Positions 20,155 to 41,634 are shown, counted from the stretch's first letter. The stretch: DNA of 64,000 bases from a virus (IMGVR_UViG_3300025909_000005), one strand, 5' to 3'. The notes: generated from the sequence alone by a model not told the origin. Made by a program: numbers and translations.

Positions 20155-20240
20155 GTCAACCTGCGTTTTCATCCTGAGGTGTTGTACTGCCTCAGGATGA
20201 CGTGGTAGAATTGCTTTATCAGATCAACACAGGAATGAAC

Positions 20241-20906
20241 ATGGGTATTCTCGACACACTCAAAGGCTCCCTCTTCGAGGATGACGGCTCGACGCCGGCA
20301 GCCCCGCAAAAGGTGGCCCCCGCCCCGGTAACGGCGGCTCCACAGGCGGCACGTGCAACGTCCACGTACACGCCGGGCCCCGTGCTCAACCAGGCCATGG
20401 TCGACAAGATCCTCAGCCAGACGATGGCGCGCAACACGGCGCTGACCGCCCTCATCAAGGCGGCAGATGCCCTCAGCGACGTCATTCCCGACCAGACGAT
20501 GCGCCTCAAGGCAGCACAGCGCACCGCTGGTGCTGGCCGCTCGGGCCAGGACATCGCTGCCGCCGTGGACATCCACCTGAACGACGTCGACATGGCGGAA
20601 CGCACGTTCTCGTCGATGGTCCAGAAGGAAGTGGACACGCAGGCCGGCGGTCTGAAGACCCAAGCGCAGGCCGCCGAGGCGACCGTATCGAACAAGCAGG
20701 CCGAGCTCCAGCGCGCACAGGACACGATCGCGCGCCTCACGCAGGAAATCGCCGACGCGCAGCACGCCGCATCTGACCTCGCCGCTCAGGCGTCGCAGAA
20801 GGAATCCGAGCTGCGCCAGTCCGAGACCGAATTCAAGGCCGCCGCACAAGCCGTGCGCGACCAGCTGAACGGTCAGAAGCAAACCATTCTCTCAACTCTC
20901 GGCTAA
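20241..20906 (+). CDS. coiled-coil protein, first gene of the transporter-like cluster
   Basis: Ala/Gln-rich helical C-terminus; SD AGGA. Confidence 0.7.
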   Translation: MGILDTLKGSLFEDDGSTPAAPQKVAPAPVTAAPQAARATSTYTPGPVLNQAMVDKILSQTMARNTALTALIKAADALSDVIPDQTMRLKAAQRTAGAGRSGQDIAAAVDIHLNDVDMAERTFSSMVQKEVDTQAGGLKTQAQAAEATVSNKQAELQRAQDTIARLTQEIADAQHAASDLAAQASQKESELRQSETEFKAAAQAVRDQLNGQKQTILSTLG

Positions 20907-20925
20907 GCCGAAAAGGAAACCAAAC

Positions 20926-21948
20926 ATGGACGAACTCACCACCAAGCCGAAGTCCTTCTGGGAACGGCCTGAAGGCACCACCGGCATGCTCGTCATCGGC
21001 GGCATCCTGGTCGGCCTCTTCTTCCTCGGCGACACGCTGATGCGGCTGTTCAACACCGCCATCACGCTCGTCGGCCAGGCGATCACCCTCACGATCCTCG
21101 GCTCGATCCTCTTCGCGCTGATCATGATCGTCACGAACAAGAAGTTCCAGACGCTCATCGGCTACATGTTCAAGTCGGCGATGCGGAAGATCACCGGCCT
21201 GTTCGTGGAGATCGACCCGATCGGCATCATGAAGTCGTACATCGAGGACCTGCGGAAGAAGCAGGAAACGATGGACGAGTCGATCGCGAAGCTGAACGGC
21301 CAAGTGAAGATCTGCCAGAAGCAAGTCGACACGAACAAGGCCGAGTACGACCAGCAGATGGCAACGGCAAAGGTCGCGAAGGACAAGAACATGACGTCCG
21401 CACTGACCGTCGCCAGCCGCCAAGCCGGCCGCCTGCAGAAGCTGAACTCCACCTCACTCGAGCCGCTGCTCCTGCAGATGACGATCCACCTGAAGGCACT
21501 GCGCAAGTACCGCGAGGTGACCGACACGGTGATCGCCGACCTGGCCAACGAGGTCAAGGCGCAGGAGATGCAGCGTGACATGATCCGTACATCGTACAAC
21601 GCCATGTCGACCGCCAAGAAGATCCTCATGGGCGGCACCGACGAGAAGGAGCTGTTCGACATGGCCATGGAATCCACGGTCAACGACTACGGCATGAAGA
21701 TGGGCGAAATCGAGAACTTCATCGAGAACTCGAAGGGCTTCGTCGACACGCTCGACCTCCAGAACGGCGTCTACCAGGAAGACGCGCTGAAGAAGCTGCA
21801 AGAGTGGGAGTCCCGTGCGGACAGCATCCTGCTCGGTAACGAGAAGCAGAAGATGCTCGAGCAGACGACGATGTCCTCGCCGGTCGCCACTGGCATCGGC
21901 CTGCCGGCAGCCGCTGACAACGACTTCGCCTCGCTACTGCGCCGCTAA
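20926..21948 (+). CDS. membrane-anchored long coiled-coil protein (PspA/IM30-like architecture)
   Basis: two N-terminal TM helices then about 250 aa of coiled coil. Confidence 0.65.
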   Translation: MDELTTKPKSFWERPEGTTGMLVIGGILVGLFFLGDTLMRLFNTAITLVGQAITLTILGSILFALIMIVTNKKFQTLIGYMFKSAMRKITGLFVEIDPIGIMKSYIEDLRKKQETMDESIAKLNGQVKICQKQVDTNKAEYDQQMATAKVAKDKNMTSALTVASRQAGRLQKLNSTSLEPLLLQMTIHLKALRKYREVTDTVIADLANEVKAQEMQRDMIRTSYNAMSTAKKILMGGTDEKELFDMAMESTVNDYGMKMGEIENFIENSKGFVDTLDLQNGVYQEDALKKLQEWESRADSILLGNEKQKMLEQTTMSSPVATGIGLPAAADNDFASLLRR

Positions 21949-22053
21949 AATAGCTAACACGTTCCAGGTCGGTGAGTTATAATGACTCATCGGCCTTGCG
22001 CTGATAGAGAAGTCTGACAGGACTTAGTTTCATCAACTTTGTAGGAAAATTTC

Positions 22054-23727
22054 ATGGCAAAACTCAAGGCGGCCCCAAAGGCCATTCTGATCGCCGCTGT
22101 GCTGGGCATCGCCGGTTACGGCGTCCACGCAGCGATGAATGCGGGCTACTTCAAGCCGAAGGCAACCATCGCGTCGTCCGTCCCGGACAAGATCGACCTG
22201 CCGACCGCAGGCGCGAACTCCACCACGACCTCCGGCACCGTGATCGCCCCGATCACCGCCAACTCGGCCGACACCGTCAAGGTCGACACCCTCGCGTGGA
22301 ACGCGACGATGGGCATGCACTACGCCAACGGCGGCGTGGACACGGCGAGCGGCTCGCTCATGGACAAGCACGGCCTGAAGGTGCATCTCGTCCGCCAGGA
22401 CGACTACAGCAAGATGGTCGCTGACCTCGCGCTGAACGCCAAGGACCCTTCGCAGGGCGCCAACTTCGTCGTCATCATGGGCGACGGCTACCCGGCCTTC
22501 GTCAAGGGCGCGAACGACGCGCTCAAGCAGTTCAACACCTCCGCCGAAGTCGTCGGCTCGCTCGGCTACAGCCGCGGCGAAGACAAGTGCGTGATCGACG
22601 CGAACGCCTCCCCGAAGGGCGCCCTGATCGCCGGCGTGCTCGGTGACGGCGACATCAACATCTGCATCAAGTACGCCTCCGACAACGGCATCGTCGTCAA
22701 CAGCGACCCGAAGACCTACGACCCGAACGCGATGAACTTCGTCGGCGTGTCGGCCTTCACCGATGCTGACCAGAAGTTCATCGCCGGCGCCAGCGACCGC
22801 GGCCACACGATCAACGGCACCGCCACCTGGACGCCGGGCGACGTGAACGTCTACGACCACCACCCGAACATCAAGGTCCTCGCCTCCACGAAGGAGTACG
22901 CGTGGCAGATGCCGGCCGTCGTGATCGGCAACAAGGCCTGGATGGCCGCTCACCCCGACGTCGTGAAGGCCTTCCTCGCGGCTTCGTTCGAAGGTGGCGA
23001 AGCAGTTCGCTCCGATGACAGCGCCCTGCTGAAGGGTGCCGCAGTCGAAGCCAAGGTCTACGGCGAGCAAGACGCGAACTACTGGGCGACGTACTTCAAG
23101 GGCACCACGAAGGGTGGCATCGCACTGGGCGGCTCGACGACCAGCGGCCTCGCCGACAACGCCTTCCTGTTCGGCCTGAAGGGCAACGACAACCTGTACA
23201 AGAAGGTCTACGACGTCTACGGCAAGATCGCGGTGAAGTACTTCCCTGACAACCTGCCGGCCCTCGTGCCCTACGGTCAAGTCGTGAACACCACCTACGT
23301 GCAGGCCCTGCTCGACTCGGCAACGAACGTCGGTGAAGCAGCGAAGCCGGTCTACGGTGGTCAGAAGTCGGAAGTCGTGGCGAACAAGAGCTACAGCATC
23401 GAGTTCGAAACGGGCAAGGCGACCCTGAAGCCGGCGTCGATCGCGGTCCTCAACGACCTGCTCGACCAGATCGCGGTCTCCAGCCTGAGCGTTCAAGTGA
23501 ACGGCCACACCGACAACGTCGGCGACCCGAACGCGAACCTCGCCCTGTCGAAGGCACGTGCCGAAACGGTGAAGCAGTTCCTGATGGCCAACGCCAGCGG
23601 CAACTTCCCGTCGGAACGCATCACGACCCGCGGTTACGGTGACACCCAGCCGGTCGCCGACAACTCGACCGCTGCCGGCAAGGCGAAGAACCGCCGCGTC
23701 GAAGTCGTGCTCTTCAGCACGAAGTAA
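22054..23727 (+). CDS. periplasmic substrate-binding protein (NMT1/SsuA-like) fused to an OmpA C-terminal peptidoglycan-binding domain
   Basis: N-terminal anchor; C-terminal IEFETGKA..GHTDNVG...NLALSKARAETV...GYGDTQPVADN....KNRRVE. Confidence 0.85.
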   Translation: MAKLKAAPKAILIAAVLGIAGYGVHAAMNAGYFKPKATIASSVPDKIDLPTAGANSTTTSGTVIAPITANSADTVKVDTLAWNATMGMHYANGGVDTASGSLMDKHGLKVHLVRQDDYSKMVADLALNAKDPSQGANFVVIMGDGYPAFVKGANDALKQFNTSAEVVGSLGYSRGEDKCVIDANASPKGALIAGVLGDGDINICIKYASDNGIVVNSDPKTYDPNAMNFVGVSAFTDADQKFIAGASDRGHTINGTATWTPGDVNVYDHHPNIKVLASTKEYAWQMPAVVIGNKAWMAAHPDVVKAFLAASFEGGEAVRSDDSALLKGAAVEAKVYGEQDANYWATYFKGTTKGGIALGGSTTSGLADNAFLFGLKGNDNLYKKVYDVYGKIAVKYFPDNLPALVPYGQVVNTTYVQALLDSATNVGEAAKPVYGGQKSEVVANKSYSIEFETGKATLKPASIAVLNDLLDQIAVSSLSVQVNGHTDNVGDPNANLALSKARAETVKQFLMANASGNFPSERITTRGYGDTQPVADNSTAAGKAKNRRVEVVLFSTK

Positions 23728-23732
23728 GACCT

Positions 23733-23763
23733 GAAGGAGAGAGTCGGGAGACTCTCTCCTCTT
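23733..23763 (+). terminator. strong hairpin / terminator
   Basis: GAAGGAGAGAGTC-loop-GACTCTCTCCTTC. Confidence 0.55.
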
Positions 23764-23804
23764 CTCGTTGTAGCTGACTACCCGTGTGGGTAATGGAAAA
23801 GACA

Positions 23805-24590
23805 ATGTTCACCACTCTCCTCGTACCGTTTGCGCAAGGCAGGAAGTTCAGCCTCAAGTTTCTTGCAGCGGTTCAACTCGCGATTCTCGCGGCCATCTGG
23901 GTCGTGTTGCCTGCCTCGACTGGCATCCCATCCCCAACAGACATCGGCTCGGCGTGGCAAACGCTGGCCACAACTCAAGGTCTTCTCCTTGAGCTCATGA
24001 AATCCGTGGTGGTGATTTGGGAGGCGCTGATCCTGTCAGCAGCATTTTCCTTCGGTGTCGCCTATCTCACCACTGCGGACATTTTCAAGCCAGCAGGCAC
24101 GATGATCGCTTCGATGCGGTTCCTCGGCTTCGCTGGTCTCACGTTCCTCTTCACGATGTGGACGTCGAGCGGGCAGAACCTCAAGCTTGCGCTGCTGACC
24201 TTCGGCATGACGGTTTTCCTGACCCGCTCCACCATCGATGACGTCAAGAGCATCCCGCTGGAGTCCATCGACTACGCTCGTTCGCTCGGCCTCCGAGGCT
24301 GGCGCATCACCTACGAGATGGCAGTTCGTGGCCGTCTCCATGCGATGCTCGACCTCGTGCGACAGAACGCAGCAGTTGGTTGGACCCTCATCGTGATGGT
24401 CGAAGGCCTGGTTCGCAGCGACGGTGGTATCGGCGCTATGCTCCTGATCCAAGGCAAGTACTTCAACCTCGCGTCAGTGTTCGCCATTCAGCTCACCATT
24501 CTGACGTACGGCATCGTTCAGGACATCCTGCTGAACCTTCTCCGGGCGATCGTGTGCCCATACACTGAACTGAACCGGAGCGACAAGTGA
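23805..24590 (+). CDS. ABC transporter permease (NitT/TauT-type)
   Basis: multiple TM helices; EAA-like loop ESIDYARSLG. Confidence 0.85.
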   Translation: MFTTLLVPFAQGRKFSLKFLAAVQLAILAAIWVVLPASTGIPSPTDIGSAWQTLATTQGLLLELMKSVVVIWEALILSAAFSFGVAYLTTADIFKPAGTMIASMRFLGFAGLTFLFTMWTSSGQNLKLALLTFGMTVFLTRSTIDDVKSIPLESIDYARSLGLRGWRITYEMAVRGRLHAMLDLVRQNAAVGWTLIVMVEGLVRSDGGIGAMLLIQGKYFNLASVFAIQLTILTYGIVQDILLNLLRAIVCPYTELNRSDK

Positions 24591-24754
24591 TCGACGACGA
24601 CGATGATGATGATGAAATCATTGAGCACGAAATCAACATCACGGTGCGGTTTCGTGGTACAATGTCAGAGTACGAGGCAGTTGCCGACTGCGTGTGCGAC
24701 GCTGAGTCCATGATCAGTGAATTCATCTCTCAACTCGGCTGCGAGGAACTCTGA
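24587..24754 (+). CDS. small acidic protein (55 aa)
   Basis: GTGA overlap; poly-Asp start. Confidence 0.45.
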   Translation: MIDDDDDDDEIIEHEINITVRFRGTMSEYEAVADCVCDAESMISEFISQLGCEEL

Positions 24755-25065
24755 TGACTAAGCCTTTTACCCCACGTGATGCAGTCGCCGCTCATGCGGA
24801 AACCATTCCAGACCTCGTGATCGATGTCGTCAACGGCCTTCTGGCGGAGGAAAGCCGTGGCACCAGCCGTCGCATCACCTTCACGTCGAAGGAAGTGTCG
24901 AAGCGTATCAAGGCCCTACTCCCAGACCATGTCAAGTTCGAGGACCGCTGGCTCGACTTCGAGGGCGTCTACCGACGTTACGGCTGGAAGGTGTCCTATG
25001 ACGGACCCGGTTACAACGAGTCGTACGATGGCTTCTACATCTTCGAGAAGAAAGACGAGGACTGA
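24754..25065 (+). CDS. hypothetical protein
   Basis: TGATG coupling. Confidence 0.7.
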   Translation: MTKPFTPRDAVAAHAETIPDLVIDVVNGLLAEESRGTSRRITFTSKEVSKRIKALLPDHVKFEDRWLDFEGVYRRYGWKVSYDGPGYNESYDGFYIFEKKDED

Positions 25066-25307
25066 TGGCCTACTCAACCCCTGGCGTCTCCATCTACTGC
25101 ACCATCTACGCGACGATCAACGATCGCGTAGAGGAGTTCAAGAACAAGAAGGGCGAGATCGAGGCGCGCACCATCGAAGGTGAAAAGGTCTGCGAGATGC
25201 TGAACGTCGGCCTGACGCCAGGCGCCTTCCACTCCCTCTACACCCAGTTCAAGCGGCAGCACCCGACAGCTGTCGTCCGCTTTGGCAAGGAATACAAGCC
25301 ATCATGA
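25065..25307 (+). CDS. hypothetical protein
   Basis: TGATG coupling. Confidence 0.65.
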   Translation: MAYSTPGVSIYCTIYATINDRVEEFKNKKGEIEARTIEGEKVCEMLNVGLTPGAFHSLYTQFKRQHPTAVVRFGKEYKPS

Positions 25308-26095
25308 GCACCACCCGACAGTACCGCTACGCCGATCGTCTGATGACGATCGAGGGACTCAACCTCTCGTACGGCAGCAAGACGATCCTTCGCGACATCA
25401 ACCTCGTGATCGACGACATCATCCGCCCAGAGATCACGCAGGGCCAATGCGTCGCGCTGCTCGGCCCCTCGGGCATCGGCAAGACGCAACTCTTTCGCTG
25501 CATCGCAGGCCTACAGCGCCCCACGTCTGGCATCGTCCGGATCAATGGTGACAAGGACCACGTGAAGGCTGGTGAGATCGGTGTGGTTCAACAGAGCTAC
25601 CCATTGCTCGCTCACCGCACGATCCTCAGCAACCTTCTGCTCGTGAACAAGGACAAGTCGAAGGTGATAGAGCTCCTCACTCGCTTCGGCCTCGAGGAGC
25701 ACGCGGACAAGTACCCCATTCAGCTGTCAGGTGGTCAGCGTCAACGCGTCGCGATCATCCAGCAGATGGTCTGCTCACGCCACTTCCTGCTGATGGACGA
25801 GCCGTTCTCGGGCCTCGACATCATCGCGAAGGACAAGGTCTGCAGCCTCATCAACGAGGTCAACCACGTCGACGAGCTGAACACGACCATCTTCACGACC
25901 CACGACCTCGAGTCCAGTGTACAGATCGCTGACCACATCTGGGTCCTTGGTCGCGAGAAGGACAAGCCTGGTGCCACCGTCATCAAGACGATCGACCTCA
26001 TCGAGCGAGACCTCGCCTGGTCACCGGACATCACGAAGCACCCCAACTTCCAACCAACGGTGAACGAGCTCAAGGAGCTCTTCAAGACGCTATGA
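25304..26095 (+). CDS. ABC transporter ATP-binding protein (NitT/TauT-type)
   Basis: Walker A GPSGIGKT, signature LSGGQRQR, Walker B LLMDEPFS, H-loop. Confidence 0.93.
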   Translation: MSTTRQYRYADRLMTIEGLNLSYGSKTILRDINLVIDDIIRPEITQGQCVALLGPSGIGKTQLFRCIAGLQRPTSGIVRINGDKDHVKAGEIGVVQQSYPLLAHRTILSNLLLVNKDKSKVIELLTRFGLEEHADKYPIQLSGGQRQRVAIIQQMVCSRHFLLMDEPFSGLDIIAKDKVCSLINEVNHVDELNTTIFTTHDLESSVQIADHIWVLGREKDKPGATVIKTIDLIERDLAWSPDITKHPNFQPTVNELKELFKTL

Positions 26096-26433
26096 ACGGC
26101 GACACATACCACTTCAAGGCGCTCAAGCGCCACCTTCGCGTCTCCTCTATCGACGGCATCACACCGCTCCGCTACAGTGAGGAAGGTGGGCCTATCGACG
26201 TCTTCGGCGATGGCGTAGTCGAGCACGTGCCTGAATCAGGGTTTGCAAGCTTCTCCTTCCTGAGCGGTGGGCGGTGGCAAGAAGTCTCGATCAGCTTCGA
26301 CACAGAGACCTATCACCGCCGCGGCATCAAGGCCGAGAGCGTGTGGCCCGCTCTCCGCGCCTTCAAGGCGGACTACGAAGAGCTGGTTCGGCAATTCCAT
26401 GGGTGGTCGCGCCCTCGTCTGGCCATCGACTGA
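26092..26433 (+). CDS. hypothetical protein
   Basis: ATGA overlap. Confidence 0.6.
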   Translation: MNGDTYHFKALKRHLRVSSIDGITPLRYSEEGGPIDVFGDGVVEHVPESGFASFSFLSGGRWQEVSISFDTETYHRRGIKAESVWPALRAFKADYEELVRQFHGWSRPRLAID

Positions 26434-26506
26434 TCAACCTGCGTTTGTGAGTGTCTAACCTGTCACAGGTTGCTTACAATAGCTCATCAACAACCAAAAG
26501 GACATC

Positions 26507-27610
26507 ATGCCGAAGCTCAAGGTTCTCCCGAAGGCGCTCATCGTCGCTGCAGTCGTCGGTGGTGGCGCGTTCGCTGCCTACAAGTTCATGCCGAAGAAGA
26601 CCGAAGTGGCACAAGCCACTGAGACGGTCACGACCCCCGCTCCAGCTCCCGTCACCGTCGCGCAAGCACCGGTTCCCGCTCCCATCGCCCAGCCGCCTGC
26701 CGTCCAGAACGACGCACCTGCTGCAACCGAGGCAGCCACCATTCCCGGCCCGGGCGGCAAGCTCCCTGGTGCAGGCATCGCGTCCGGCCAGAAGACCGGC
26801 ACGAACTGGCCGATGGCCGAGAACATCGTCAAGGTCTGCTCGACGAGCGCCTACCCGCTGCGCAACGTCATCAGCGACGGCTCGATCGACAATCTCAACA
26901 AGATCTACACGGACCCGAACACGCAGTTCGGCATCGCGCAAGAAGATGCGATGGCCTACCAGAAGCAGATCGACCCGAAGATGATGTCGCGCGTTGTCGC
27001 CGTCTTCCCGTTCTTCTCGGTCGAAGTGCACGCGATCGCCGCCAACGGCTCACCGATCCACAACCTGGCCGACCTCGAAGGCAAGCGCGTCATCGAGGGC
27101 CCTGAAGGTTCCGGTACCTGGGTGACCACGCAGATCATCAAGCAGGTCACGGGCATCCACTGGCAGACCGTCGAGGGCAACCTCTCCCAGAAGGACGGCC
27201 TCAAGGCCGTCGAGACCGGCGCCGCAGACGTTGAGTTCATCGTCGCTGGCCAGCCGATCCAAGTCCTCACCGGCGCGAGCGGCATCCAGCTCGTCAACAT
27301 CAAGGATCCGCGTCTCGACAAGTACGGCTACTACACGAAGACGATGCTCCCGACGGGCACGTACCCATGGCAGAGCCAGCCCGTCTCGACCTACAAGGTC
27401 AACAACGTGCTCGCGACGTTCGCGTACAAGTCGCAGTACCAGAAGGAAATCGGCGACCTTGTCGGCTGCATCACGAAGAACATGGACCAGCTGCAGGCAA
27501 CCGGTCACCCGAAGTGGCGCGACGTCGACCCGCTGGACATCGATCGCGTGAAGTGGCCGGTTCACCCCGCCGCCGTGGCCGCCATCAAGCGTGAAGCGAA
27601 GCACAAGTGA
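26507..27610 (+). CDS. TAXI-family (TRAP-associated) solute-binding protein
   Basis: GSIDNL, FGIAQED, DLEGKRV..GPEGSGT motifs; N-terminal anchor and Pro/Ala linker. Confidence 0.8.
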   Translation: MPKLKVLPKALIVAAVVGGGAFAAYKFMPKKTEVAQATETVTTPAPAPVTVAQAPVPAPIAQPPAVQNDAPAATEAATIPGPGGKLPGAGIASGQKTGTNWPMAENIVKVCSTSAYPLRNVISDGSIDNLNKIYTDPNTQFGIAQEDAMAYQKQIDPKMMSRVVAVFPFFSVEVHAIAANGSPIHNLADLEGKRVIEGPEGSGTWVTTQIIKQVTGIHWQTVEGNLSQKDGLKAVETGAADVEFIVAGQPIQVLTGASGIQLVNIKDPRLDKYGYYTKTMLPTGTYPWQSQPVSTYKVNNVLATFAYKSQYQKEIGDLVGCITKNMDQLQATGHPKWRDVDPLDIDRVKWPVHPAAVAAIKREAKHK

Positions 27611-30067: not shown

Positions 30068-31192
30068 ATGGCATCGAAAGTTCTGACCGTCTACATCGGT
30101 CGTTTCCAACCACTTCACAACGGACATGTCCACGTTCTGACGAATGCGCTTCGCACGTCGGACCACACGCTGGTGCTCGTCGGCAGCTCGTTCCGTTCCC
30201 GCACGATCAAGAACCCCTTCACGTTCGACGAACGTAAGGAAGTGCTCATGGCCTGGCACGACGACTCGGAGCTCGACAAGAAGAGCCTGACCGTTCTGCC
30301 ACTGCGTGACCAGCCCTACTCAAACTCCAAGTGGATCGAGTCGGTGCAGAAGACGGTCCACAACTTCATGATCGAGAAGCATCTCGACCCCCGCACCACT
30401 GAAGTTCGCCTCACCGGTTCCGACCGTGACGAGTCGACCTGGTACCTGCAGGCCTTCCCGCAGTGGAAGCTGGCGCTCTGCGCTCCAGTTCCTGCCGGCC
30501 GCGACCTCTCAGCCACCAACCTCCGTCATGAGCTGTTCGGCGCCATGCTTGGCACGGCCATCAAGGACGACACCCCTCGCATCACGCAGTTCTTCATCGA
30601 GAAGTTCCGATTCGGCGAGGAGTTCGCGCTCCTCAAGGCCGAGTACGACTTCATCGAGAAGTACAAGAAGGCCTGGAAGGCAGCACCCTACGCACCCTAC
30701 TTCCTGACCGTCGACGGCGTCGTGATCCAATCCGGCCACGTGCTGGTCGTCCGCCGCGGCGCCCTCCCTGGCAAGGGCCTGCTCGCTCTGCCTGGTGGCT
30801 TCCTCGATCAGAACGAGCGCCTCGCCGACGGCGTGGTTCGTGAACTCATCGAGGAAACGGGTCTGCGTCTGGCTGACGGCAAGAACGCCGAACGCATCAC
30901 GAAGTCGATGCTGCAGGGCGCCATCAAGGCGAAGGAAATCTTCGACGATCCGAATCGCTCGCTGCGTGGTCGCACCGTGACGACTGCCTACCTCATCCGC
31001 CTCGATGACACCAAGCCGCTTCCGAAGGTGAAGGGCCAGTACGCACCGCTCCACGAGACCGGCGGCAAGCTCGTCGTCGAAACGGCTGACGCGTTCTGGA
31101 TGCCGATCGCCGACGCGCTGCGCGACAGCTCGGTGTGGTTCGAGGACCACTACTACATTCTCGAGACGATGCTCGGCTTTGCGAAGGACTGA
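30068..31192 (+). CDS. bifunctional NMN adenylyltransferase / NUDIX (ADP-ribose) hydrolase (NadM-Nudix, NatV-like)
   Basis: GRFQPLHNGH (HxGH), LSATNLR, ALPGGF....E......RELIEETG, WFEDH. Confidence 0.92.
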   Translation: MASKVLTVYIGRFQPLHNGHVHVLTNALRTSDHTLVLVGSSFRSRTIKNPFTFDERKEVLMAWHDDSELDKKSLTVLPLRDQPYSNSKWIESVQKTVHNFMIEKHLDPRTTEVRLTGSDRDESTWYLQAFPQWKLALCAPVPAGRDLSATNLRHELFGAMLGTAIKDDTPRITQFFIEKFRFGEEFALLKAEYDFIEKYKKAWKAAPYAPYFLTVDGVVIQSGHVLVVRRGALPGKGLLALPGGFLDQNERLADGVVRELIEETGLRLADGKNAERITKSMLQGAIKAKEIFDDPNRSLRGRTVTTAYLIRLDDTKPLPKVKGQYAPLHETGGKLVVETADAFWMPIADALRDSSVWFEDHYYILETMLGFAKD

Positions 31193-33524: not shown

Positions 33525-33579
33525 TGTACGTGGGTCCTACTCTGTGATACAATGGAGTAGGACCCACAATGGAGCAAGC

Positions 33580-34887
33580 ATGGCAGGATCACGAATCGCA
33601 CCAGTACTCGCAGTGATTGGAGCTGGTTACGGTGACGAAGGCAAGGGCCTCTTCACCGACTACCTTGCCCGCAAGCACTCGAGATTCCAAGGCACGAAGG
33701 TTCCTCTCGTCATGAGAGGAAACGGTGGTGCACAAGCTGGCCACACTGTCGTCGATGGCACGAGGCGTCACGTCTTTGGCCACATCGGCTCAGGCACGAT
33801 GGCTGGTGCTCGTACCTACCTCGCTGAGAACTTCATCGTCAACCCCATGGCCTTCGCTCCTGAACTGGAGAAGGTGAAGGCCCTTGGCATGGACCCGACC
33901 GTCTATGCCCACTCCAACTGCCGTGTCACAACGATCTTCGACATGGCGCTGAATTCCCTGGCCGAGCTCTTCCGAGGTCGCGCCCTTCACGGCTCATGCG
34001 GCTACGGCATCAACGAGACCGTGACTCGCAACGAGGCGGGCTACTACCTCACGATGGCTGACATCCGTGCAGGCACCGCAGTTCTCGCAACCAAGCTCGA
34101 GGACATCCTTCGCGAGTACGTACCGACCCGGCTCTATGCCATCGGCTACCAGGAATGGGACCGCGACTCGGCCACCCCGCAAGTCAGAGCGCAGGCGGAC
34201 GTCTACCTCAAGACCGTCATGGTGCAACAGGACGATCGTGCGGCCCACTGCAGCGCCCTCGCATCGAGGATGCAGAAGGACGTTCACTCGATCCACCTCT
34301 ACGACCCGAAGTCGTTCACGTGGTCAGGCGAGCCGATCATCTACGAAGGTGCACAAGGCCTGCTGCTCGACGAGTACCACGGTACGTTCCCGCACGTGAC
34401 CCGCTCCGTGACAGGCGTCGCCTCCGCTGTTCGTGCTGCCGCTGAAGCTGGACGCACTCAAGTTCAGCCGTACTACATCACGCGCTGCTACACGACCCGC
34501 CACGGTGCGGGTCCCCTGTACAAGGAAGGCGAGATCATCACCGATGGCGTCCGCTCGCTTCCTGATGAAACGAACATGCCGAACCAGCACCAGGGCACGC
34601 TGCGCTTCGCACCGCTGAATCTCGGCCACCTTCGGAACGCAATCGAGCGAGACATGGAACGTGCACGTCACGTCGGCCAGGTCTTCAACATCGAGGTCCT
34701 TCAGCCGAAGCTTGTCGTCACCCACCTCGACCAGCTCGGCCGCAAGGTGCAGTTTGCTGGATGGAGCTACCTTGTCGAGAGTGAAGCTGCTGCGAAAGCA
34801 ATCGGCAACTTCCTCGAGGTGTCCGTCTCGCACGTTTCCTACGGACCTGAAGCAAAGGATGTACGAGAGTTCACCTCTGAGCTATAA
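33580..34887 (+). CDS. purA: divergent adenylosuccinate synthetase (PurA-like)
   Basis: GAGYGDEGKG, NGGAQAGHT, EGAQGLLLD, PHVTRS, TRHGAGP, THLD. Confidence 0.8.
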   Translation: MAGSRIAPVLAVIGAGYGDEGKGLFTDYLARKHSRFQGTKVPLVMRGNGGAQAGHTVVDGTRRHVFGHIGSGTMAGARTYLAENFIVNPMAFAPELEKVKALGMDPTVYAHSNCRVTTIFDMALNSLAELFRGRALHGSCGYGINETVTRNEAGYYLTMADIRAGTAVLATKLEDILREYVPTRLYAIGYQEWDRDSATPQVRAQADVYLKTVMVQQDDRAAHCSALASRMQKDVHSIHLYDPKSFTWSGEPIIYEGAQGLLLDEYHGTFPHVTRSVTGVASAVRAAAEAGRTQVQPYYITRCYTTRHGAGPLYKEGEIITDGVRSLPDETNMPNQHQGTLRFAPLNLGHLRNAIERDMERARHVGQVFNIEVLQPKLVVTHLDQLGRKVQFAGWSYLVESEAAAKAIGNFLEVSVSHVSYGPEAKDVREFTSEL

Positions 34888-34946: not shown

Positions 34947-36419
34947 ATGTCTGAAAAACTCGTTCCCTACACCCCGAAGCGCCTCACGTACAACCCGCTG
35001 ATGCGCACGGACAGCTACAAGTTCTCGCACGCCTTCTCGTACCCGAGCAACGCCACTGGCATGTTCTCGTACATCGAGGCCCGCACCGGCGGCCAGGACA
35101 TCATCGTCCCTTTCGGCCTGCAGATCTGGCTGAACGAACACCTCTCCATTCCCATCACCGCAGAGAACATCGACGAGGCCGAGCTCTTCGCAGCTGCCCA
35201 CGGTGAACCCTTCAGCCGCGCGGCCTGGGAGAAGGTCCTCAACAAGTATCACGGCTACATGCCCGTGACCATCCGCGCCGTTCCCGAAGGCACGCCGGTT
35301 CCGAGCGGCAACGCCCTCGTGACCATCCAGTGCGAGGACGAAGAGCTCGTCGGCGAAGTCAACAGGATTCTCGTCTTCTGGATCGCCTCGTACCTCGAGA
35401 CGCAGATGCTGCGCGCCTACTGGTACCCGACCACTATCGCCACCCTCGACCGTGCGACGAAGCTGCAGATCAAGCGCTTCTACGAAATCGCCGGTGCCGA
35501 CCTCAACTTCCTGCCCTTCTCGCTGCACGACTTCGGCGGCCGCGGCGTTTCGTCCGGCGAGACCGCTGCCATCGGCGGTGCCGCCCACCTGCCGTCCTTC
35601 ATGGGCTCGGACACGGTCGAAGGCGTTCGCTACGCCAACTTCTACTACGACGAGGCCATGTCGGCCTTCTCCGTCCGTGCGACGGAGCACTCGGTCGCCT
35701 GCTCGTTCGGCCTGTCGGATGAAGACGAGATCGCGTACATCGCCCACCAGCTGAAGGTCTTCGAAGGCAATGGCAACATCATCTCGATGGTCGGCGACTC
35801 GAAGAGCATCAAGCGCTTCGCAAAGCACCTGTGCACGACCTTCCGTGACCAGATCATGGACCTCCATGAGCGCCTCGGCATGAAGATCGTCTGCCGCCCG
35901 GACTCCGGCGATCCGCTCGAGATCATTCCGATGCTGCTGAAGATGTTCGCTGACGCGTTCCCGACCACGAAGACCAGCGCCGGCTACATCAAGCTCTACC
36001 CCGGCATCGGCATCCTGCAGGGCGACGGCGTCGATCGCATGACGATCCTCACCATCCTCGGCAACATCATGGCCATGAACTTCTCGCCGGACAACATCGT
36101 CTTCGGTTCCGGTGGCGGCCTGCTGCAGAAGGTCAACCGCGACACGTTCAAGTTCGCGATGAAGGCCTCTGCGATCAAGGTCGACGGCAAGTGGAAGGGC
36201 ATCGTCAAGGACCCGGAAACCGACCCCGGCAAGAAGTCGAAGGAAGGCATCCTGACCCTCGCGACGAACGGCCTCGGTGACTACCTCACGGTGCGCCTCG
36301 ACAACTCCGAGAACCCGTACCCGCGCGGCTATCACGATGCCATGGTCACGGTCTACGACAAGGGCCAGTTCTACAACCATACGACGCTGGCTGAAGTCCG
36401 CGCCCGCTGCGCGGTCTAA
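34947..36419 (+). CDS. nadV: nicotinamide phosphoribosyltransferase (NAMPT/NadV)
   Basis: TDSYKFSH, LHDFGGRG, ATEHS, RPDSGDP, QGDG, FGSGGGLLQKVNRDT, KDP.TDPGKKSK.G. Confidence 0.93.
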   Translation: MSEKLVPYTPKRLTYNPLMRTDSYKFSHAFSYPSNATGMFSYIEARTGGQDIIVPFGLQIWLNEHLSIPITAENIDEAELFAAAHGEPFSRAAWEKVLNKYHGYMPVTIRAVPEGTPVPSGNALVTIQCEDEELVGEVNRILVFWIASYLETQMLRAYWYPTTIATLDRATKLQIKRFYEIAGADLNFLPFSLHDFGGRGVSSGETAAIGGAAHLPSFMGSDTVEGVRYANFYYDEAMSAFSVRATEHSVACSFGLSDEDEIAYIAHQLKVFEGNGNIISMVGDSKSIKRFAKHLCTTFRDQIMDLHERLGMKIVCRPDSGDPLEIIPMLLKMFADAFPTTKTSAGYIKLYPGIGILQGDGVDRMTILTILGNIMAMNFSPDNIVFGSGGGLLQKVNRDTFKFAMKASAIKVDGKWKGIVKDPETDPGKKSKEGILTLATNGLGDYLTVRLDNSENPYPRGYHDAMVTVYDKGQFYNHTTLAEVRARCAV

Positions 36420-41274: not shown

Positions 41275-41346
41275 GCCTCGGTAGCTCAGTGGTAGAGCGG
41301 ATGCCTCTAAAACGTCGGGTCGTGGGTTCGATTCCCACCCGGGGCA
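41275..41346 (+). tRNA. amber suppressor tRNA, anticodon CUA (copy 1; CCA not encoded)
   Basis: GCCTCGG/CCGGGGC acceptor; anticodon loop CT-CTA-AA; canonical D and T arms; C-A mismatch at 31:39. Confidence 0.85.
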
Positions 41347-41355
41347 CAGATAAGG

Positions 41356-41568
41356 ATGACCATGGGACGTAGACTTTCCCTGCATGAAATGAATGCCATC
41401 AGGCATGAGGACGATGTTCGCAACTCGCAGATCAAGCGAGGCGAATGGAAGCCGAAGACAAACAACAACTATCACTGCGTGTGTGGTTGTGGTGCGTTCG
41501 CATGCGTGTTCGTGAGCTCAATTCCGCAGACGGTCCTGCCCATGGACGAACGATCAAATGTCTCTTAG
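41356..41568 (+). CDS. small Cys-containing protein between the two suppressor tRNAs
   Basis: SD AAGGA; HCVCGCG; stop TAG lies inside the downstream tRNA. Confidence 0.55.
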   Translation: MTMGRRLSLHEMNAIRHEDDVRNSQIKRGEWKPKTNNNYHCVCGCGAFACVFVSSIPQTVLPMDERSNVS

Positions 41569-41634
41569 CTCAATGGGTAGAGCGACGGTCTCTAAAACCG
41601 TATGTTCCGGGTTCGAGCCCCGGAGGGACGGCCA
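41559..41634 (+). tRNA. amber suppressor tRNA, anticodon CUA (copy 2)
   Basis: perfect anticodon stem ACGGT/ACCGT, loop CT-CTA-AA; weak T1.G72, G73, CCA encoded. Confidence 0.9.

Follow-up and report, generated by a model that had tools for sequence, protein, structure and literature searches.

The window analysed here is a 64,000-nucleotide stretch of DNA from the virus IMGVR_UViG_3300025909_000005. Between positions 20,158 and 27,610 it carries consecutive genes, all on the + strand, among them six for envelope components that we call C, P, S, M, A and TAXI. We find that this locus is a phage-borne member of a mobile five-gene envelope cassette, C-P-S-M-A, accompanied by a TAXI binding protein. 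The named genes span 20241–27610 and their frames are intact (Table 1). An original prediction made from the sequence had described an envelope transport and sensing module at this place, and its six named components proved to be real, intact and co-oriented, with their anatomy read correctly.

The window is phage-like, with 28 tRNAs, a tmRNA, an RNA ligase, a DNA ligase, NAMPT and NMNAT. Its source contig measures 376,619 bp, and the relatives of the window in IMG/VR are contigs of 230–390 kb. A nucleotide search with the 7.5-kb region gave no match among 50,697 phage records. At the protein level the phage records contained distant homologues alone (21–32% identity), in Lak megaphages and in LR756500. 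For comparison we used 140 related loci (handles beginning with L), in which all open reading frames (ORFs) were searched by iterated hidden Markov models and in which the bacterial loci are the best 80.

An importer with a tethered receptor

On sequence and predicted structure, S, M and A are expected to form a type I ATP-binding cassette (ABC) importer of the TauA/SsuA/NrtA kind. S is composed of a membrane anchor (residues 6–29), a disordered linker (34–58), a binding domain (about 70–440) and an OmpA-like domain (about 445–557). Its AlphaFold model, built from a 46-sequence alignment, reaches a pLDDT of 90 and a pTM of 0.85 and shows a two-lobed binding domain. The nearest folds to this domain are TauA, SsuA, NrtA/CmpA and ThiY-type proteins, with template modelling (TM) scores in Foldseek of 0.75–0.78 for TauA 6ssy, 0.74–0.76 for 3ksx and 2x26 (SsuA) and 0.62 for 2g29. 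The modelled domain is thus assigned to the TauA/SsuA/NrtA structural class; PF09084 is faint on S homologues. The OmpA-like domain matches PF00691 (E 2.4e-20, 73.1 bits vs. a cut-off of 27.2) and resembles TagL and the C-domains of OmpA proteins with a TM of up to 0.88.

More than 1500 homologues of S were found. Across 46 phage and bacterial ones, 37 columns are invariant and fall where strands end and helices start in the binding domain (motifs WN, MGDG, GYSRGEDKC, DGD and ATWTPGD) and on the OmpA motif GHTD…N..LS..RA. Judged by this alignment, the conserved cleft of S argues for a specific ligand. D487 and R502, both invariant in the 46 homologues, lie within the OmpA motif, and the conserved Asp and Arg are what we take to be the diaminopimelate-binding motif, by the A. 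baumannii OmpA structures 3td3–3td5. S is accordingly modelled as a protein whose N-terminus sits in the inner membrane and whose C-terminal OmpA domain attaches to peptidoglycan.

M follows S on the 3' side in 130 of the 140 loci and has a conserved coupling-loop region (ARSLG..W). Its matches in NCBIfam are SaoP (5.5e-6), TauC (6.8e-5) and SsuC (2e-3), all far short of the cut-offs; among the PHROGs it matches phrog_6743 (E 4.2e-9). The ATPase A retains Walker A, Q-loop, LSGGQ signature, Walker B (DEP), D-loop and H-loop, all conserved across 96 homologues, and continues for about 45 residues past the core in a C-terminal extension. In NCBIfam, A matches CysA and PhnT best and TauB at 4e-32, a result that does not discriminate the transporter type.

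P is a divergent member of the PspA/ESCRT-III superfamily

The second half of the cassette consists of P and C. The original prediction had listed a PspA-like protein and a membrane-anchored coiled coil as separate items; both are present, as the single protein P. A second coiled-coil protein does exist, namely C, and it has no membrane segment. Hydropathy places the two hydrophobic helices of P at residues 21–39 and 52–70, followed by a long helical domain. When a profile of 40 P homologues was compared to the PDB, the best match was Vipp1 (E 5.6e-6), with a near-gapless alignment of profile positions 97–225 on Vipp1 22–149. D97 and P98, the sole near-invariant residues of the P family, align on the Vipp1 DP, where the alignment begins. 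In the AlphaFold model of P the pLDDT exceeds 90 at residues 110–210, and the top Foldseek matches are all Vipp1, PspA or ESCRT-III proteins, the hairpin giving TM scores of 0.78 (6zvs) and 0.80 (4whe). P therefore has the ESCRT-III-type helical hairpin (helices 1–3), the preceding amphipathic helix and the DP motif. NCBIfam and PHROGs returned nothing for the window copy. Because the PF04012 threshold was failed, profile and model together lead us to place P in the PspA/ESCRT-III superfamily but outside that Pfam family. Anchored by its two N-terminal helices, P presumably lies at the cytoplasmic face of the inner membrane.

C stands immediately 5' of P in 94 of the 140 loci. In an alignment of 39 homologues, the N-terminus bears a conserved LKxLxFxxD motif and is joined through a Pro-rich linker to a helical domain at the C-terminus; both this alignment of homologues and the Atlas record favor the ATG at 20241 as the start. 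C belongs to no family in Pfam, NCBIfam or PHROGs, an Atlas feature search led to unnamed clusters only, and its profile found generic coiled coils in the PDB with no specific match. A complex prediction of P (72–340) with C (12–234) gave a score of 0.00, which counts neither way.

The TAXI protein and its anchor

The TAXI domain is recognized by TIGR02122 (98.8 bits vs. a cut-off of 84.35) and PF16868 (E 4.7e-23), and the nearest solved proteins are 8u79, 1us4 and 8s4j. The phage TAXI family comprises 374 homologues in two length classes. The N-terminus of the window protein (MPKLKVLPKALIVAAVVG…) resembles that of S (MAKLKAAPKAILIAAVLG…), and by this likeness the two anchors appear to be homologous. 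In six distant relatives (L001, L085, L086, L088, L095 and L113) TAXI has an ordinary signal peptide, and a separate ORF of 94–161 aa, composed of an S-type anchor and a Pro-rich tail, lies immediately 5' of it. Anchor and TAXI are one gene in the window, L002 and L082–L084. Since the genes are fused here, we infer that the anchor protein cooperates with TAXI and that one kind of helix holds both receptors in the membrane.

Three placements of TAXI genes next to the cassette were seen. In this phage clade the gene comes after A, in L134 it lies between P and S, and in two contigs of the candidate phyla radiation (CPR) it precedes C. No TRAP membrane component (fused Q-M, 12 or more helices) was found; this search covered the + strand window ORFs of at least 60 aa, all of which have at most four hydrophobic segments. 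DctQ and DctM are likewise absent from the Pfam matches of the module genes.

Distribution, descent and selection

Pattern scans found at least 282 relatives in bacterial and archaeal species-representative genomes and 59 loci in IMG/VR. The order C-P-S-M-A occurs in about 80 of the 140 loci, the remainder being mostly S-M-A cores or truncated contigs. Carriers of the full order include IMG/VR contigs of 230–580 kb and, among cultured bacteria, Undibacterium, Collimonas, Caballeronia, Massilia, Albitalea and Serratia; metagenome-recovered Acidobacteriota, Myxococcota, Armatimonadota and CPR genomes are further carriers. Order and frames are kept in relatives down to about 30% identity.

In an unrooted tree of S, the window falls in a clade of 16 rows, 14 of them viral. 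The remaining two rows are short contigs that were binned with bacteria; one of them (L002) has the phage-type TAXI. This clade is nested in a set of 49 rows together with a purely bacterial Burkholderiales clade (99% support), a placement in the tree that fits a Burkholderiales host. Compared to six relatives, synonymous sites are saturated, protein identity is 57–76% and dN/dS is 0.08–0.6 for all six genes. By these comparisons the module is under purifying selection in the huge-phage lineage of the window.

In 14 loci from Burkholderiales and Chitinimonas a KdpD-family kinase and an OmpR-type regulator adjoin the cassette. The kinases have the layout DUF4118-HisKA-HATPase, with or without a KdpD N-domain, and the pairs are located divergently upstream or directly downstream of the cassette, in three arrangements in all. 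The phage carries no such two-component regulator. Upstream, L015 and its relatives also encode a large hybrid kinase whose sensor domain is SBP_bac_3.

Proposed function and alternatives

We favor, with a probability of roughly 0.55, a role of the importer and the P/C cassette in membrane and osmotic maintenance during infection. S would be made in excess from its own promoter during a long infection cycle and would capture a small polar solute near the membrane for import by M2A2. Like PspA and Vipp1, P would polymerize, probably with C, on the inner membrane's cytoplasmic face and would keep the membrane tight and energized. In this way the module would hold membrane integrity and osmotic or ionic balance until the virions are finished. 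Control would be exerted by a KdpD-like sensor in bacteria and by the infection programme in the phage. TAXI could serve the same importer as a second, likewise tethered receptor, or it could be a receptor using a host membrane partner. Among the functions proposed in the original prediction, envelope-stress control alone has gained independent support, from the position of P in the PspA/Vipp1/ESCRT-III superfamily by profile and fold and from the KdpD-family kinase/regulator pairs that adjoin bacterial copies of the cassette.

Several points weigh against a maintenance role. As far as gene order tells, transporter and P may merely travel together rather than act together. The likeness of P to Vipp1 is modest (E 5.6e-6; Foldseek E ~1e-3), coiled-coil bias inflating such scores. 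The window P has no match to PF04012, and 3 of 40 homologues match it weakly (best E 0.0028). M reaches E 0.0018 with BPD_transp_1 in Pfam, which is short of the curated cut-off. To our knowledge there is no precedent for a TAXI protein serving an ABC importer. Finally, the codon bias of S, P and TAXI described below is found as well in NAMPT and other bacterial-type auxiliary genes and may mean bacterial ancestry, not expression.

A plain auxiliary metabolic module is an alternative that we regard as doubtful. Here the importer with its receptors S and TAXI would scavenge a nutrient or precursor for replication, such as a sulfonate, a nitrate/bicarbonate-type anion, a pyrimidine or thiamine precursor, an amino acid or a dicarboxylate, and C and P would merely be co-inherited. 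The importer is indeed complete with intact motifs, the closest folds to that of S are those of nutrient receptors (TauA, SsuA, NrtA and ThiY), glutamate binders (PMC11574862) are among the nearest solved relatives of TAXI, and the neighbouring genes belong to auxiliary metabolism (NAMPT, NMNAT, ligases). However, C and P stay with S-M-A across phyla and phages down to about 30% identity, which is hard to understand without a joint function. A nutrient receptor pinned to peptidoglycan is no known feature of scavenging systems, and in bacteria the cassette is associated with stress sensors of the KdpD type instead of nutrient regulators. It is unlikely, moreover, that S reports envelope geometry or a periplasmic signal while the M2A2 ATPase drives or gates assembly and disassembly of the P/C polymer in place of an AAA+ protein (Vps4/PspF-like). 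The double tether of S and the C-terminal extension of about 45 residues on A would suit such a device, and it would speak to the question raised by Ravi et al. (PMC11237479) of how PspA homologues without an AAA+ ATPase are regulated, since Pfam and NCBIfam detected no AAA+ unfoldase domain in any module gene. Yet M is of the type I importer kind and not of the mechanotransmission kind (FtsEX/MacB/LolCDE), the cleft of S is highly conserved, as a real ligand site would be, and contact of P or C with the transporter is purely hypothetical. A bolder version, which we treat as speculative and improbable, takes everything as a single machine: tethered receptors, S and TAXI via the same anchor, would couple the ABC ATPase cycle to an ESCRT-III-like P/C polymer, and the ‘LKxxPKA’ anchor shared by S, TAXI and the stand-alone small proteins would be the docking element. 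If true, this would be a new, AAA+-independent control of PspA-type membrane repair and the first instance of an ABC system served by a TAXI receptor.

Superinfection exclusion or lysis timing, also proposed for the module, is very unlikely in our estimation. Wall-tethered proteins and a membrane polymer could block the entry of rival DNA or delay holin-triggered collapse; tethered periplasmic proteins might obstruct incoming phage machinery, PspA-type proteins are generally known to counter membrane permeabilization (summarised in bioRxiv 10.64898/2026.10.24.761521), and the same preprint raises superinfection interference for other envelope proteins. The cassette is, however, chromosomal in many free-living bacteria under two-component control, so that its primary function should be cellular, a full importer with intact motifs is needless for exclusion, and the window region shows no linkage to a lysis gene. 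We give almost no credence to a recently captured host operon that is heading to decay without a role in the phage. The nearest homologues of S in Burkholderiales and a third-position G+C content (GC3) above the phage median could be taken in its favor. It is contradicted by the intact homologues in dozens of huge-phage contigs and their kept gene order, by saturated synonymous divergence and a dN/dS below 1, and by lineage-specific elaboration in the form of TAXI, the anchor fusion and phage-type promoters. Because of the purifying selection and the intact frames we do not regard the locus as a decaying capture.

Comparison with known systems

The cassette type as such has been published (PMC11237479; bioRxiv 10.64898/2026.10.24.761521). 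Ravi et al. (2024, mSystems 9:e00847-23, PMC11237479, section 18) described bacterial operons in which PspA or a transmembrane-anchored Snf7 is combined with an ATPase of the ABC type, a permease and a PBPb-OmpA protein, in some cases with an AAA+ ATPase, and proposed a link between membrane remodelling and solute transport. The present locus shares the transmembrane ESCRT-III/PspA protein, the exported fusion of solute-binding protein (SBP) and OmpA domain and the co-oriented ABC ATPase and permease. CPR bacterial examples of this type are within our set of loci (L032, L036 and L037). The locus differs in its huge-phage carrier and in having no AAA+ ATPase among the module genes, which is optional in the published description. 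It also has the extra conserved C, an added TAXI with S-type anchor, and phage-type promoters in place of the two-component regulator.

A survey of huge phages reported 189 pspA genes, 15 of them beside complete ABC transporters (bioRxiv 10.64898/2026.10.24.761521). There, too, a PspA-type protein stands beside SBP, permease and ATPase, and the loci are read as membrane-stress management. The earlier statement that full ABC systems are unusual in phages is therefore overstated for huge phages, the more so as the cassette occurs on 59 IMG/VR contigs. PF04012 was required as the best Pfam match in that survey, and because P has no PF04012 match this lineage was probably missed in its count. The OmpA fusion, C, and TAXI with its anchor are features of our locus that the preprint does not describe. 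In neither paper do we find the three TAXI arrangements, the TAXI-anchor fusion, the promoter-like −10 element of S or the KdpD-family neighbours of bacterial copies.

E. coli TauABC and SsuABC and cyanobacterial NrtABCD and CmpABCD resemble the importer in the fold of S (TM 0.62–0.78), in the weakly TauC/SsuC-like permease and in the single-domain ATPase. In contrast to these NitT/TauT importers, S, which is only 10–15% identical, is tethered to membrane and wall, and the importer is tied to a PspA-like protein instead of to sulfur or nitrogen regulons. PspA and Vipp1 (IM30; 4whe, 7o3w, 6zvr) have the same helical hairpin with a DP motif where helix 1 starts, and we place P on the cytoplasmic side as well. 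They are peripheral, whereas P is predicted to be permanently anchored by two transmembrane helices, lies below the Pfam threshold and has no PspBC or PspF partners. A TAXI protein with a non-TRAP partner is known from Bordetella pertussis (TAXI-GltS; Jaques et al. 2025, PMC12344293). In both cases TAXI is membrane-tethered, a TRAP membrane gene is lacking and the partner is deduced from gene context and fusions. The partner there is the secondary transporter GltS and the anchor is a lipid, whereas in our phage TAXI adjoins an ABC importer and a PspA-like protein and is tethered by a transmembrane helix copied from S.

Nothing in the locus is categorically new, as the operon type is in the literature; TAXI with an S-type anchor, the lack of an AAA+ ATPase, the phage promoters and a P too divergent for PF04012 are lineage-specific variations. 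The cassette joins two well-studied machineries, ABC import and PspA/ESCRT-III membrane repair, and its retention under purifying selection suggests that it pays off during infection. It would offer a handle on how giant phages keep up the host envelope through long replication cycles. Cultured carriers (Undibacterium, Collimonas, Caballeronia, Massilia and Albitalea) make it accessible to tests. The link to KdpD-type regulators suggests K+ and osmotic stress as stresses of interest, and the anchor-TAXI fusion points to specific protein contacts.

Promoter-like elements, hairpins and codon bias

With 10 copies in the window vs. 0.8 expected, the motif TGNTAKAAT is 12-fold enriched; nine of the copies are on the + strand. 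Several are located directly 5' of genes, including those for tmRNA (40253) and RNase P RNA (about 59752), and TGNTA(T/G)AAT is probably the host-type promoter signal of this phage. One copy precedes gene C (TGGTAGAAT). Between the stop codon of the RNA ligase gene, which precedes the C region, and this element we observed a 10-bp inverted repeat (CATCCTGAGG…CCTCAGGATG) at 20170–20199, which may be a terminator or a processing hairpin and has no T tail.

S has a σ70-like promoter of its own in the P-S intergenic region. Its −10 element TA(T/G)AAT is invariant in seven diverged relatives, with a mean identity of 44% in the intergenic alignment. Between this element and the start of S, at 22011–22031, lies a leader element, AAGTCTGACAGGNCTTAGTTT, that is conserved in L082, L084 and L087 and contains a short inverted repeat. 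The hairpin after S has a weak T tail (CTTCTCGTTG) and might act as an attenuating terminator separating S from the membrane components.

The 13-mer TCAACCTGCGTTT is found exactly and only twice in the window, at 20156–20168 before C and at 26434–26446 before TAXI, both copies being at, or at most 2 bases from, the stop codon of the gene that comes before. None of the 140 related loci contains the 13-mer, and its spacing to the −10-like elements is unequal between the copies; as a shared signal it was therefore set aside as unexplained or due to chance. Between the second copy and a TACAAT element 5' of TAXI, a perfect palindrome, AACCTGT-C-ACAGGTT (26458–26472), could be an operator-like site.

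S, P and TAXI are strongly biased in codon usage, with effective numbers of codons (Nc) of 28.7, 29.8 and 31.4, ranks 2, 5 and 6 of 76 ORFs (window median 43.5), and GC3 values of 0.85–0.92. The bias noted originally for S and TAXI is thus real, high expression being one possible reading of it. We rejected it as proof of high expression, the same bias marking other bacterial-type genes, and it may reflect expression, ancestry or both.

One rhizosphere metatranscriptome run contained contigs 90–99% identical to parts of C, P, S and the 3' end of TAXI, including three pieces of 272–493 nt with about 98.5% identity over S. These contigs come from a relative of the phage, and as an RNA library may contain DNA they are not proof of transcription. 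A high depth over A was due to ABC genes of other organisms.

Table 1. Positions of the cassette genes, regulatory elements and related features. Numbers without a locus handle refer to the window.
Feature	Position	Strand	Remarks
C	20241..20906	+	221 aa; soluble helical/coiled-coil protein; longest ORF from GTG 20202
P	20926..21948	+	340 aa; two N-terminal hydrophobic helices, then PspA/Vipp1/ESCRT-III-like domain
S	22054..23727	+	557 aa; TauA/SsuA/NrtA-fold binding domain fused to OmpA-like domain
M	23784..24590	+	ABC importer permease, type I, BPD_transp_1-like; nearest SaoP/TauC/SsuC
A	25304..26095	+	ABC ATPase; PF00005 (ABC_tran) E 7.7e-28
TAXI	26507..27610	+	S-like membrane anchor 1–30, Pro/Ala-rich linker 31–90, TAXI domain 91–359
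Small ORF	24754..25065	+	103 aa; between M and A
ORF	26092..26433	+	113 aa; between A and TAXI
Extended −10-like element	20203..20211	+	30 nt 5' of gene C
σ70-like promoter CTAACA-18-TATAAT	21954..21983	+	P-S intergenic, 5' of S
G+C-rich hairpin	23735..23760	+	11 bp; directly after S stop codon
TGNTA(T/G)AAT copies	14774, 20203, 28544, 37263, 40245, 49744, 52583, 56069, 59754	+	
TGNTA(T/G)AAT copy	46980	−	
Stand-alone anchor ORFs	L001:13133-13417, L086:12389-12685, L088:13870-14355, L085:7909-8307		5' of signal-peptide TAXI
Kinase/regulator pairs	L011:2891-5990, L007:1293-4794	−	
Kinase/regulator pairs	L035:7471-9847, L015:10690-13841, L031:10690-13859	+	

Intervening and neighbouring genes

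The ORFs at 24754, 25065 and 26092 belong to no family in Pfam, NCBIfam or PHROGs. The first of them gave phmmer matches in nine loci, each time between M and A and in the closest phage relatives only. The ORF at 26092..26433 has no match in the 140 loci and is probably outside the module.

Further along the window, a 447-aa ORF (33544–34887) matches phrog_1211 (E 3.6e-57), which is annotated as an adenylosuccinate synthetase of the PurZ type (2-aminoadenine pathway); it could be of this type or, equally, an ordinary PurA homologue. Genes of NAD salvage encode a cytidylyltransferase/NMNAT-NUDIX fusion (30068–31192) and the nicotinamide phosphoribosyltransferase, NAMPT (34947–36419). Two tRNAs with a CUA (amber-reading) anticodon are located at 41275–41347 and 41559–41634, separate from the main tRNA array.

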